From TPA_inf: Saccharomyces (lineage: Eukaryota), in the NCBI GenBank assembly GCA_000146045.2, contig BK006939.2:160001-224000 (forward strand): a stretch of 64,000 bases of DNA, written 5' to 3'. The notes below the pieces were generated by a model. That model was not told where the DNA came from and did no database searches. It worked only from the letters and a program-made list of their open reading frames with translations. The position numbers and the translations under genes were made by a program. This document shows, one piece after another, positions 4,485 through 47,428 of the stretch (within the stretch, counting starts at the first letter, position 1; every line of letters begins with the position of its first letter).

Positions 4485-6083
<1,599 letters not shown>

Positions 6084-6236
6084 TCACAGTATATAGTTAA
6101 TCTTGGCTAGTTGCATATTTAAAAATCAGGAAACAGCCTTTTAGATTGTAAGCGGATGTTATTCTAATTTTTTCTTAGTTTCTTTATTTTATTATGTAGC
6201 AGATGGATAGTAATATAGTGTTGACGGCTCCGTTTG

Positions 6237-6885
6237 TTACTCAACGCTGAAGTTCCATAAGGGGTCGCCCAAATGGTGAATCAATTCTATGGAATGACCT
6301 TTGTTCACTGATTTAATTTCTTCAGTACCCATCATCAATTCACCAATAGCCAATGCATTCTCTTTATTTTCGGCATTGATGACTACAATCGTACCTTTCT
6401 CGTAACCAGGAGCAGGTGGTAAGTCGGCACCCGCAGAAGTTAGGCCAGGGCACATGATATTAGCACCTGAGAGAACGAATTTAATAGCACCTCTATCAAC
6501 CTGAACAGTGGGATAAGCCTCTGGAAATTTGTGTACTAATTTCAGGCTTGGAATCAGTTCATCGAATTTTTGAAAAAAAAGAACTTCACCATCGACGGAA
6601 TACAATTGGATCTTATCTTCACATTTAATCAACTCGATTTGACTCTTCTTAGGAATTAATTCATCAATAACATCTTCTATTTTGGGGTACTGCTTGACCA
6701 ATTTGGCCTTTAACGTTCTTTGAATTGAAGATTTGACCTTTGAACGTGAATGGACATCTTCTCTTGTGAATCTATCGATGATGATGTTAGTAATTGCTTA
6801 CTGAGTCAAAAGTGTACACTAACCCCTGGTAAAACCAGTGAATTACGCAATATTCATTCTCATGTTAGACATACTTCTTAAACAT
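6237..6885 (-). CDS. TMA20: translation-machinery-associated protein (MCT-1/PUA family), 181 aa. Two exons: exon 1 at 6875-6885 (ATGTTTAAGAA) and exon 2 at 6237-6771, with a 103-nt intron at 6772-6874.
   Basis: The main ORF lacks an N-terminus. Upstream on the minus strand the sequence reads ATG TTT AAG AA|GTATGT...TACTAAC...ATAG|A TTC ACA AGA. The spliced product starts MFKKFTREDVHSRSKVKSS... and is in frame with the ORF. Confidence 0.85.
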
Positions 6886-7426
6886 TTCCTCTCTGCTGTT
6901 TTAGTTTACCGTCTTTGTCTTTTATATGGTTTTACATAAGGTTATAGCAAAATCAAGTTTTTTCACACAATAATTTTTCAGATAATTAAATTTTTCGTCA
7001 TTTTTACACCTACAAATACAAAGCATAAGAGTAAGGTAACTATGAATTTAGTGGAAAATGACCATAATGATAATTATCAATAGATAAAATTATGGTTTTT
7101 GAGGTGAAGTTGAGGTCTCGTTTATAGACGGCACTGTCAGGTAATTGGTCAACTCTCCTATACAAAGTTTACTGTATCGGGTGAAAAGAAAGACACACAA
7201 GAAGGAGAACACTCATGCCTACCATTTTAGTTGCCATTTCTGTATTACTTACAATTCCAGCTTCTATAACGTGAACTCACATTAGAGAATTCGGTGAAAA
7301 AGAAAAGAAAAATATGGTTGGGCCCTCAATTGAATGTTTCAGTCCGGTATCCCTAACCTATTTTTTGATATTACTTCCAAAGAAAAATAAACAGTCCCTT
7401 TGAAAGAATGAATATCGGTAATGAAA

Positions 7427-7586
7427 AAAGGTATTCCAAAAATTCCCTACATAGTCTTGAAGTATTCAAAAGCGAACACCGAATTGACCATGAGGAGACG
7501 GTCTGGTTTATAATTAAATTTCAACCAGCAAAAACACAATCTCGGACGAATCCTCACTGATATGCGTATTTCCCGTGCATAAGGAT
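7427..7586 (-). ncRNA. SNR14: U4 spliceosomal snRNA gene, 160 nt
   Basis: The minus strand reads AUCCUUAUGCACGGGAAAUACGCAUAUCAGUGAGGAUUCGUCCGAGAUUGUGUUUUUGCUGGUUGAAAUUUAAUUAUAAACCAGACCGUCUCCUCAUGGUCAAUUCGGUGUUCGCUUUUGAAUACUUCAAGACUAUGUAGGGAAUUUUUGGAAUACCUUU, which I recognise as yeast U4. Confidence 0.92.
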
Positions 7587-7678
7587 GGAGTATTAAGGAA
7601 GGAAGTGAAAGAAAAGAAAATGCATTAAACGTAAGTAACAATAGTAATTGGACAATGAAGCTAACTAATATTCTGTTC

Positions 7679-7686
7679 CTTTTATA
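7679..7686 (-). promoter_or_regulatory. TATAAAAG TATA box about 95 bp upstream of the U4 +1 site
   Basis: The minus strand reads GAATATAAAAGG; the spacing is typical of yeast pol II snRNA promoters. Confidence 0.4.
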
Positions 7687-7807
7687 TTCAGAAAAAAAAA
7701 TTCGAAAACTAATATATCATTTTACACGATATTTGAAATTGAAATTTATCAAAATATTTACTTAATTAGTCTAAATATGTAATATGAAGCGACAATGCAG
7801 AGGTTAC

Positions 7808-10800
7808 TTAGGCATTCTTGTATTCCTCGAACGCACTTATGATATCGTTCTTCGTGAAGCGTATGTTTGTCCCTCTATAGTGTTTATCAATTACAGTGTA
7901 TAGTTTCAAGTATAGTGAGACGGTTTGACCTTGAATGCACGACCACAACTTATCGCATAGGACGTTGTTTATGGCATTTTCTTGGTGGTAACCGAAGTCA
8001 TTTACCATATGAGTGTGCAGCCTTTTTACTAGAGTTTCAATTTCATGGGAAGTGTATGCTAAAAGAATGTTCTCTAGGTTCTGCCTGCTATATGCGGCCC
8101 ATCTTGAAGGATTGGTCATGTTCACATTGTTGGTATTTTCAATGATGTTGCTCACACCATAAACAAAGGCTGTTAGTTTAGGCATAGTATCGCGGAGTAG
8201 AAAGGAAGCATAAGATTCTTTTTCCACATCGAAAACTTTCTTAACGTTTTGCAATGACGTATCAAATATACCATCCTTATTGAAGTTTAACATGGAAAGC
8301 ATTTCAGTTAGCCAGTTACTGTTCACTAGGAGAGAAATAGTTTCCATATAGTCATTATTTAAAGCAGCAGTATCTGAAAGGTTTGGATTAATGCTTGAAT
8401 TAACTTCTTTGTGAGTTATCGATCGTGTGGCAGCTATGCTTAGCTTCCTGAAGCTCGAATTCATTAATTCGATGGACTCGTAGCCTTCATCGGTATCTTT
8501 AATATCCATAGACCTCTTAGCAAATTGGAACAAATCTTCTGAATTCTTCAAGCCTACTGGTAAATCAAGTATACCTGGAAGAATTTCTCCATTGGTGGTT
8601 GCGTTAGAAATTCTTTCGAAGTGCAAAACCTGCTCTTCTACATTATCAGACCACACTTGTTTTATTTGTGTGTACATTCTAGTCACTGCAGACAATAAAA
8701 ATTCATGGTTGGATGATTCTAAGCTTTTAATTTCATTCTCCAAGTAAAAAGTTAAGGCTGGGGCTACCGTTGGTTCGGCTTTCACTAATTCTACAAAATA
8801 TGAGGACAGCCTAGTGACAATAGGTTGGAATATTCTTGAGACCAACTGGGTTTCAATAACGGCTGCTTCTCTATCAGATTGCATTACTTTCACAGTATCT
8901 AATAATATTGGAGGAGCATCTGGATCATTGAAATGTTTAATGTATTCTTCGAAATTATGCTTTGAAGATATATGAAAGAACACTTCGACAAAATTTTGAT
9001 AAACAATACATTCTTGCCTCATGGTTTGAAGGCACTCGGTAAGAAGAGAAAAACTATTCTTGAAAACCGGGTTGATATCATTTGTTTTTCTCTCTTTTCT
9101 AAATGTGTCCCATTCATTTAGTAACTGGCTTAAGCTCAGCTCATTCATTTTTTCATCATTTGTGTCAATGCCTTGTAATTGTGATATTTTCTTAGTCCAT
9201 AACTCCATGTATACTGGTTGAATACTGACGTTCCAATTTTCCACAATTGCTTGATACGATTTTTGTGAAATTTCTTTACAGAACAGTATTAAAGGAGAAA
9301 ATATCAATAAAGTCGTCAAAATTCTAATCATTTGATCGTGTGAGATATCTTGTCCACGTATATTTGAGAATTTCTTCTGCATTTCCTCCACAATTCTGTT
9401 AAGAAATATCTTGGTAACTTTCTCATAAAACTGTAGCCTCTGCTTTAGTCCGGAAATTTCTCTTAGATTATATTCTACTTCATTTCCATCGCTGCCTATT
9501 GCTTGAAATGCTTTTAATAATAAATTCAATTGGTTTTCCATCCATGGCAAGTTCTTCTCTCTTATTGGACATTCTAATAACTGATTTAGGGAAATTTCAT
9601 CAAGAGATACAGTTTTCAAAAGTTCATCAAGTGTGTTCCATAGAAGTTTCTTGTTAGCACTTTCAACTTGTAATCCGTTATCTTGGCTCTCTACGTTTTC
9701 GATATCATTAGAAAAATTGCTCATTTCCATCAAGAATAAAGAGAGAGTGGGGATTATGCGATGACATTCGTCATTGACCTTGTCTTCGTAGGGGCGGATA
9801 TTAGGCCCAATTTTTTGCAAAGATAATAAATTTTGGTTGAATAAGTATTCCGTTTCCGCCAATCTTAAGTCAATCCTTTCAATCATACTATCAGCATCGT
9901 CTTCAATGGACCAATTGATATCTGTTAATATTTCTAATAAAACCTCATCGTCAATATTTTCCATCGTTTTTATCTCCTCTTTAGATTCAATCAGCGCTTC
10001 AGATTCGTTATTCTCTTCCGGAAGGATTAATTTCTGCGAAACGGCAGGTGCTTCTTCTTGAATAATTGACACTTCATGGTACACGTGAGGAGCTTCACCT
10101 TCAAAATTATTGCTATACCTAACCTCATCTCCCTTCTCGAACGAAAGATCGTTCTTCTCATCTTGGTCCTCTCCTGATAAGTTAGATGTATTCAAACCTG
10201 CTATCTCGTCACTCAAACTGATCGAGTCATTCAAATCGCTTCCACCGAGTGACTCAACTTTGGCAATATTTAGTGGTTTTTTTAATTGGTCATGAGCTCT
10301 AGCTGTACTTCTCTCGGGCACGTAAGTACCATTTTGCATAGTAGGGGTGGTTTCTGTTTCTTCCGCCAAAACTGCGTTTAAGTCCTCCAAAAGGTTATCA
10401 ACCTTACCATTTATTTCTTGAGTATAACTTTCATTGTCTACTTTGTTTCTTTTACTTTTTTCTTCCTCCTCCTTTTTAGCAAGCGCTTCTTGCTCTTCTT
10501 TTTTTAATCTCTCAGCTGTTTCTTGTTCTCTTTGTTTTCTCTGTATTTCCAATAGTTCTCTCTCTTTTTTTAGGCGTTGCTCTTCTTCGAATTGCCGTTG
10601 ACGTTTCAACTCCATTTGCTTTTTAGCCTCCAGTTCCATTTGACGTTTTCGTTCCTCTTCTTCGAGTTGTCGTTGGTGTTCCAATTCCATTTGCCTTTTC
10701 CTCTCCTCCTGCTTTATTCTTCTTTCCTCTTCTAATCTTTTCATCTCATTTTCCTTTTGTAACTGAAGTCTTTTTTGCTCTTCTAATCGTCTCAGTTCAG

Positions 10801-11818
10801 CCTCTTCTTGTTGCTGTTGTTGCTCTAACTCGTATCTTTTATTCACTTCATTCAATGTCGAATTGGAAGAATAGGGGGCCTTATTTAGAGATTTCATTCC
10901 TGCATGATATTCCACGCTTGCAGGCGTTGACACTGGATTAACGCTTTCTGTTTCAGACCTTCTTGTCCTCTCAGTAGGTGCTGAAAAGGGGACAGAGCCC
11001 ACCGATTGGGTAGTGTTTGTCGTGAAATTACTTGTAGGTGACTTTATTGGAGATACGGAACCGGGGCGATTTGTGATGACTGCTCTTTGATAACTCCTCT
11101 CGTCAAGATAAAAAAGGGATAAATCCCAATTGACCAATTCAGGGACATGACCTTCGAATGTTTGAATGTATAGAGTAATTAGAGATTTAATGAAAACAGT
11201 TCTTTCCTTCGCAGAATTCGTTTCCCAGTAGTATTTTTTACTCATGGTAAGAATGAAGCCTTCAGATATCTCCAGGTCCTTCTCTACTCTTACTAGTTCG
11301 GTCAACTGCCAAGTTCTACCAATTTGAAAAGAGCCGTCTGAGTTTTCTCTTGCTTTATGAATTTGTATTAGCTTGGCATTGTTGGGCTTGGCACTCAAAA
11401 TAAGGAGTCTTTTCTTTTTGTTCTCCAATTTTGAATCTGGAGGAGGTCTTGAACTAGGGAATTTTGAATCTTCTATAATCCGGACATGTGTAATATAATT
11501 ATTCGGCGGTTCACCTGTCTTATGGTCGGGTCTGGAAAAGCAGCAATTAATTATGGCTTTCCTATCCCTTTCATATTGTTCGGCTAAAAAATTCGAAGTT
11601 TGAGAGGAATTTGAAGCTCTCGACACGTTTCTCTTATGCGAATAATTTCCACCAGAAACAGGTGGTGCGGAAGAGGGTACTGCACCTTGACTGACGTTTC
11701 TAGAATGGTGAGCACTGCTACCGGATATTGTTCTCTTGTGGAAAAACGATGTGTTTTCATCGTGTGATGTCTCACGACTGTGAGACTTCCTTTTAAAAGG
11801 AGACTTCGAGGACCTCAT
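7808..11818 (-). CDS. SEC3: exocyst subunit Sec3, 1336 aa, N-terminal PH-like domain plus a long charged coiled-coil
   Basis: Length, the SEC3 signature architecture, an E/R/K/Q-rich repeat block, and position all match. Confidence 0.9.
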
Positions 11819-17098: not shown

Positions 17099-17170
17099 TC
17101 CGATATAGTGTAACGGCTATCACATCACGCTTTCACCGTGGAGACCGGGGTTCGACTCCCCGTATCGGAG
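17099..17170 (+). tRNA. tE(UUC): tRNA-Glu (anticodon UUC), 72 nt, intronless; followed by a T6 pol III terminator at 17174-17179
   Basis: The sequence TCCGATATAGTGTAACGGCTATCACATCACGCTTTCACCGTGGAGACCGGGGTTCGACTCCCCGTATCGGAG contains an A box, a B box GGTTCGACTCC, and the anticodon loop CUUUCAC. Confidence 0.93.
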
Positions 17171-47356: not shown

Positions 47357-47428
47357 GCCATCTTAGTATAGTGGTTAGTACACATCGTTGTGGCCGATGA
47401 AACCCTGGTTCGATTCTAGGAGATGGCA
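47357..47428 (+). tRNA. tH(GUG): tRNA-His (anticodon GUG), 72 nt; a T-rich pol III terminator follows
   Basis: The sequence GCCATCTTAGTATAGTGGTTAGTACACATCGTTGTGGCCGATGAAACCCTGGTTCGATTCTAGGAGATGGCA contains a B box GGTTCGATTCT and the anticodon GTG. Confidence 0.93.

Follow-up and report, generated by a model that had tools for sequence, protein, structure and literature searches.

Introduction

The U4 small nuclear RNA (snRNA) of Saccharomyces cerevisiae and its gene, SNR14, the closest described system for the locus considered here, were reportedly first described by Siliciano, Brow, Roiha and Guthrie in Cell in 1987. The U4 coding region is 160 nt long, the gene has a TATA box and a near-optimal initiator, an upstream Rnt1 cut lies at +135 with a Nrd1-Nab3-Sen1 (NNS) terminator downstream of the Rnt1 site, and the Sm consensus given for U4 is A2U5G2 (PMC9670810). 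The trimethylguanosine cap, the binding of the Sm ring, Snu13, Prp31 and Prp3/4, and the essentiality of U4 for splicing and viability are taken here wholly from the literature (e.g. PMC4408799), where strains deleted for snr14 are maintained with U4 on a plasmid. A 2025 genetic study of U4 lists G61/C82 and G62/C81 among the pairs of the intramolecular stem U4-ISL1 (PMC12324492). A broader comparison is provided by the RF00015 consensus U4 (human, plant and other fungal; about 140-150 nt), in which the elements follow the order stem II strand, K-turn 5' stem-loop, stem I strand UUGCUGGUUGAAA, central hairpin and Sm site.

Within the 64-kb stretch of DNA analysed here (the window), the minus strand at 7427-7586 is almost certainly SNR14, the single U4 snRNA gene of S. 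cerevisiae or of an extremely close relative. The window and S. cerevisiae SNR14 share the 160-nt length, the oligonucleotide-covered nucleotides, the numbering, the U6 pairing and the Sm site, together with the TATA promoter, an Rnt1 hairpin at the published +135 cut and the gene neighbourhood, and the window has the same element order as the RF00015 consensus. Family membership, U6 complementarity, covariation of the 5' stem-loop, the Sm site, identity with published sequence over 97 of 160 nt and the flanking elements were each obtained directly from our analysis. SNR14 is an already known textbook gene, and nothing at the locus is new. Its RNA elements in the window are as follows.

7427..7586, minus strand: mature U4 snRNA (SNR14), 160 nt, with nt 1 at 7586 and nt 160 at 7427, placed from Rfam, the published length and oligonucleotides
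7570..7586, minus strand: U4 nt 1-17, AUCCUUAUGCACGGGAA, the U4/U6 stem II strand, with 16 of 17 pairs to U6 nt 64-80
7534..7567, minus strand: U4 nt 20-53, the 5' stem-loop with K-turn, present in the minimum free energy (MFE) fold and the co-fold and backed by covariation
7523..7530, minus strand: U4 nt 57-64, UGCUGGUU, the stem I strand and 5' strand of the intramolecular U4-ISL1, from the co-fold
7503..7508, minus strand: U4 nt 79-84 (AACCAG), the 3' strand of U4-ISL1, lying in the Brr2 loading region, with residues matching PMC12324492
7446..7495, minus strand: U4 nt 92-141, the 3' (central) stem-loop, RNAfold -18.8 kcal/mol, also a stem in the Rfam alignment
7436..7444, minus strand: Sm site AAUUUUUGG, nt 143-151, with a single nt between it and the hairpin of nt 92-141

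Identity and extent of the RNA

Scanning the whole window with Rfam 15 at gathering thresholds returned three matches in total, and a single one was to U4. This match, to RF00015 on the minus strand at 7396-7586, scored 89.2 bits (E 1.3e-18), the gathering score being 46, and its alignment spans model positions 1-138 of 138, the full model. The Rfam comparison had been put forward as a check in the original prediction, and the score obtained is close to double the threshold. When 6700-7850 was scanned at a permissive E-value, nothing of note besides U4 emerged.

The mature 3' end at 7427 is not readable from the sequence; its basis is the 160-nt length of the coding region (PMC9670810) and the site of probe U4-14B at nt 140-158, and the published length therefore places the end where the original prediction had put it. 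That prediction of a complete 160-nt U4 on the minus strand at 7427-7586 is borne out by the RF00015 match and the published length. The tail after the Sm site comprises 9 nt, with the final CCUUU at 7427. The Rfam hit runs 31 nt further, to 7396, by way of a 3'-terminal stem that we rejected as forced: it consists of 4 bp between CCUU (7431-7428) and AAGG (7399-7396), closing a loop of about 30 nt, and the stretch folds at -2 kcal/mol (z +1.2), with 183 of 200 shuffles folding as well. Because this stem is unstable, the hit end at 7396 is an alignment artefact and not the end of the gene. In this respect the window differs from the RF00015 consensus, being without a stable 3'-terminal hairpin after the Sm site.

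Comparison with published reagents ties the sequence closely to yeast U4. Published S. cerevisiae U4 oligonucleotides and probes are identical to the window over 97 of the 160 nt, and over these 97 nt no difference from SNR14 was found. A U4 mimic oligonucleotide equals nt 1-18 and 53-64 exactly (PMC3177201), the 48-nt snR14 Northern probe DL2627 is exactly complementary to nt 76-123 (PMC6314782), and the standard probe U4-14B is exactly complementary to nt 140-158 (PMC4408799). A reading with one G fewer (CAAUUCGUG) was rejected, the window's CAATTCGGTG being right according to probe DL2627. Numbering from nt 1 at 7586 fits residues U6, U8, C12, U57, G58, G61, G62, C81 and C82, and the 79-84 and 69-75 strands named in the same study fall on the correct bases of the window (PMC12324492).

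Pairing with U6

The sequence of yeast U6 nt 49-88 was taken from PMC3177201 and co-folded with the 160 nt of the window. The co-fold places stem II first, then the 5' stem-loop and then stem I, which is the canonical order. All 8 pairs form in stem I, between U4 57-64 and U6 55-62 (GAUCAGCA), and 16 of 17 form in stem II, where the mismatch falls at C12 exactly as published (PMC12324492). Co-folding with U6 had been suggested in the original prediction as a way to confirm stems I and II, and it returned both in their canonical arrangement. At one mismatch, the 64 kb contains a single copy of the complement of U6 nt 64-80, against an expectation of 0 from 100 shuffles. Within U4 itself, nt 79-84 (AACCAG) are complementary to nt 59-64 (CUGGUU), the two strands of ISL1. 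A duplex prediction between U4 and the U6 fragment was set aside, as it gave a stretched and unrealistic duplex (z -3.0), and explicit register counts and the co-fold were used in its place.

These pairings also bear on the possibility that the locus encodes U4atac, the paralogue of the minor spliceosome. U4atac belongs to the same Rfam clan (CL00007), and the E-value scan suppressed one overlapping clan member of lower score; the best clan match is nevertheless U4, at 89 bits, and the pairing strands fit the U6 of the major spliceosome, not U6atac. To our knowledge S. cerevisiae has no minor spliceosome, which also counts against this assignment, and we regard the chance that the RNA is U4atac as negligible.

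The 5' stem-loop, central hairpin and Sm site

The 5' stem-loop contains an asymmetric internal loop, with AGUGAGG at nt 29-35 opposite CCGAG at nt 42-46, and is closed by a UUCG loop. Relatives were sought in metagenomes with a pattern of K-turn and stem I motifs (TGAGG...CCGAG...TTGCTGGTTGAAA), which was found in at least 120 contigs, with 93 distinct sequences among the matches listed; 10 of 10 metagenome loci rescanned with Rfam proved to be U4, at 72-130 bits. A covariation alignment was then built from 26 distinct 5' domains, comprising the window and 25 U4 genes from metagenomes. Across these 26 sequences 99.3% of cells in the 5' stem-loop are paired, and compensatory (two-sided) changes occur at 8 of the 11 pairs; the helices alone serve as independent evidence, because the search pattern itself required TGAGG, CCGAG and the stem I motif. 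None of 500 shuffles matched the observed pairing or covariation score, and slid partners were only 25-45% paired. The helix of the window is AU-rich (ACGCAUAU/AUUGUGU) whereas that of the RF00015 consensus is GC-rich, and the window's version is a compensated form of the consensus.

The central hairpin immediately precedes the Sm site, and this arrangement is shared: in 10 of 10 U4 genes compared the hairpin abuts the site, ending one nt before it, with an unrelated sequence in each. At about 50 nt the hairpin of the window is longer than those of other taxa (24-38 nt). The Sm site AAUUUUUGG fits the A2U5G2 consensus (PMC9670810), and AAUUU[U/C]UG is conserved at this position in the metagenome relatives. 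The original prediction had listed a 5' stem-loop, a U6-pairing region and an Sm site near the 3' end, and all three were located, at nt 20-53, at nt 1-17 and 57-64, and at nt 143-151, respectively.

Folding of free U4 is a different matter. The MFE of the 160 nt alone is -38.6 kcal/mol (z -1.29 against shuffles), which is not unusually stable, and in this fold nt 81-85 pair with part of the Sm site. Such weak folding presents no contradiction: U4 acts in duplex with U6 and within proteins, so a weak fold of the RNA alone is to be expected. Since U4 functions paired to U6, free folding is uninformative, and the co-fold and the covariation count were used instead. Of the two elements on whose folding the original prediction had been staked, the 5' stem-loop forms in the free fold and the co-fold alike, and the Sm site holds in the consensus and co-fold sense only, part of it being paired in the free fold.

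The two closest, budding-yeast-like metagenome loci (L071 and L114) resemble the window in their UUCG-capped K-turn loop GGAUUCGUCC, in the AUGCA within stem II and in the short tail after the Sm site, and their central hairpins are shorter than that of the window. A hairpin following the Sm site is present in the animal-like or plant-like loci L091, L014 and L032 and absent from the window, L071 and L114. The U4 gene of the window is single and isolated, in contrast to the tandem U4 arrays or mixed snRNA clusters of other loci: L091, a metagenome contig of another eukaryote, has five U4 hits by Rfam in about 5.5 kb, and the clusters in L009 and L054 hold U2 and U4, with U5 as well in L009, in 1-2.5 kb. 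In loci L015, L034, L094 and L111 the 5' ends attached to the U4 bodies are unrelated, and these loci are probably pseudogenes.

The overlapping open reading frame

The original prediction had drawn attention to a 64-aa minus-strand ORF lying across the RNA, and the mechanical ORF list does contain it.

7447..7641, minus strand: 64-aa ORF with a TTG start, from the mechanical table-11 ORF list, judged spurious

The start codon of this frame, at 7641-7639, precedes U4 nt 1 by 55 nt; being upstream of the U4 transcription start, it is not on the U4 RNA. The longest ATG-initiated stretch within the 64-codon frame is 14 codons. Neither the 64-aa product nor that of a 50-codon antisense frame gave a match in a Pfam scan, and a collection of about 15 billion predicted proteins contains neither of them as an exact sequence. 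In six yeast records the interval from the TMA20-like gene to SEC3 is free of gene calls.

A real small-protein gene at 7447-7641, alone or besides the RNA, would account for the 64 open codons, and sense ORFs of 35-57 codons do overlap U4 in a few other loci. Against this reading, TTG is not a normal eukaryotic start and here lies upstream of the U4 transcription start, the ATG-initiated part is short, and the product is without a Pfam match, absent as an exact sequence from the predicted proteins and uncalled in the six records. The sense ORFs over U4 in other yeast-like loci, moreover, vary in frame, position and length, and RNA pairing fully explains the conservation of the region. We consider a small-protein gene extremely unlikely, and the 64-aa ORF is spurious, a by-product of listing ORFs with bacterial start codons.

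On the opposite strand an ATG-initiated frame of 50 codons runs antisense to U4 at 7408-7560 (+), most likely by chance. It is very improbable that the locus is bifunctional, with either a rare transcript from an upstream start or this antisense frame (7408-7560, plus strand) being translated into a micropeptide, and nothing observed points toward a micropeptide overlapping U4. The warning in the original prediction, that an annotation based on ORFs alone would miscall U4, is valid for an ORF lister using the bacterial code; in the six records sampled no such call had been made.

Flanking elements, neighbours and strain variation

Beyond the RNA itself, the surroundings of the locus contain the elements expected of SNR14 and three protein-coding neighbours.

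7808-11818, minus strand: SEC3 gene, from Pfam
7679..7686, minus strand: TATAAAAG, probable SNR14 TATA box at -100..-93, read from the sequence
7257..7294, minus strand: Rnt1-type hairpin in the pre-U4 3' extension, folding at -13.4 kcal/mol
7186..7252, minus strand: cluster of GUAA/GUAG (Nrd1) and UCUU/CUUG (Nab3) motifs, a probable NNS terminator by motif and position
6237-6885, minus strand: TMA20-like Pre-PUA/PUA gene split by an intron, from Pfam and splice motifs
4527-6083, plus strand: PAC2-like CAP-Gly/LRR gene, from Pfam

The initiator context has A at -8 and C(-1)A(+1). Downstream, the Rnt1-type hairpin is capped by an AGUU tetraloop at 7277-7274, which corresponds to +150..+153 past the mature 3' end. 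Rnt1 measures 14-16 bp from AGNN tetraloops. The published +135 cut (PMC9670810) falls 15 nt 5' of the AGUU loop. Nrd1 and Nab3 motifs follow at +175, +179 and +205 and then from +225 to about +241. Position and motif together suggest that the hairpin is the Rnt1 substrate and that the motif cluster is the NNS terminator.

The PAC2-like protein is present, identical at every residue, on NCBI chromosome records that share this gene order. The locus of the PAC2-like, TMA20-like and SEC3 genes is presumably that of chromosome V of S. cerevisiae. The intron of the TMA20-like gene, which the ORF list cannot show, is 103 nt long (6874-6772) and comes after the first exon, ATGTTTAAGAA (6885-6875). 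It has GTATGT at 6874-6869, TACTAAC at 6792-6786 and, as acceptor, TAG at 6774-6772; the joined exons yield 27 + 154 = 181 aa, and four of the six records call this same length. A canonical substrate of the spliceosome thus lies 0.55 kb downstream of U4, and its promoter region overlaps the terminator region of SNR14. Elsewhere in the window, tRNA-Glu(UUC) at 17099-17170 (+) and tRNA-His(GUG) at 47357-47428 (+) were found by Rfam and ARAGORN.

Variation among strains is nearly confined to sequence outside the RNA. The same 160 nt are unchanged in five of six strain records and the sixth (L123) has one C insertion in the 3' tail (ACCCUUU), so that nt 1-156 are invariant in all six. A comparison over 650 bp found differences only in the promoter, in a T-run past the 3' end and in the L123 C insertion. 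Two other records, L122 and L125, have one T fewer in the T-run past the mature end, together with promoter SNPs; the variation at the 3' end of U4 falls at 7426-7431. In one strain record a promoter SNP turns the TTG start of the ORF at 7641 into GTG.

These flanks and this invariance bear on whether the locus could be a U4 pseudogene or a silent extra copy. Pseudogenes and truncated copies of U4 are common in other eukaryotes, and metagenome loci L015, L034 and L094 carry U4 bodies with scrambled 5' ends. The locus in the window, in contrast, matches the model over its full length with stem I and II strands, K-turn and Sm site intact, is identical to oligonucleotides that detect or manipulate functional yeast U4, has its promoter, Rnt1 hairpin and terminator motifs in place, and does not vary over nt 1-156 across strains; snr14-deletion strains, furthermore, live on plasmid-borne U4 (PMC4408799). 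A pseudogene or silent copy is therefore very unlikely, and we return to SNR14 as the identity of the locus.

The gene neighbourhood is shared in part with the budding-yeast-like loci. Downstream of U4 in L071, at a distance of about 1 kb, is a PAC2-like CAP-Gly/LRR gene (6098-7567, minus strand) whose orientation relative to U4 is that seen in the window, and the upstream neighbour there is a DEAD/Helicase_C protein in place of Sec3, so synteny is partly conserved. In both L071 and L114 the H/ACA snoRNA snR36 lies about 135-320 nt 3' of U4 on the same strand (L071:5250-5414 (+) at 74.6 bits and L114:2181-2365 (+) at 83.9 bits, Rfam), whereas in the window no snoRNA follows U4 in the permissive Rfam scan of 6700-7850. 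The linkage of U4 and snR36 may be ancestral and lost in the lineage of the window, or the two genes may share a transcription unit in L071 and L114.

Discussion

The elements assembled here allow a mechanistic outline of how SNR14 would be expressed and how its RNA would act, in which the bound proteins, the processing steps, the essential role and the precise 3' end are drawn from the literature or inferred. RNA polymerase II would start at 7586, about 100 bp downstream of the TATA box, and read into the 3' extension, where Rnt1 would cut the AGUU-capped hairpin some 135 nt beyond the mature end. The exosome would then trim pre-U4 back to an Sm-protected 3' end, leaving 160 nt, with the Sm ring predicted to bind AAUUUUUGG. 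Pairing of U4 with U6 through stem II (1-17/64-80) and stem I (57-64/55-62) would keep the AGC triad and the internal stem-loop of U6 inactive, stem I masking the AGC-triad region and stem II the 3' half of the future internal stem-loop. The K-turn 5' stem-loop would serve as the platform for Snu13 and then for Prp31 and Prp3/4, and U4/U6 would be held inactive within the U4/U6.U5 tri-snRNP. On activation of the spliceosome, Brr2 would load onto the unpaired stretch that follows stem I on its 3' side and would strip U4 off U6, after which U4 nt 59-64 would pair back with nt 79-84 to form ISL1, hindering re-annealing (PMC12324492).

Yeast researchers have worked on SNR14 since the 1980s, covering the gene, the RNA with its partners, and its processing, and the present analysis makes no open question about them more testable. 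The danger of a miscall lies with naive ORF listing and not with the six annotation records sampled. The locus therefore matters as quality control only: a six-frame ORF track that admits bacterial starts places a "hypothetical protein" on an essential non-coding RNA gene, and a covariance-model scan removes this ORF artefact at once.
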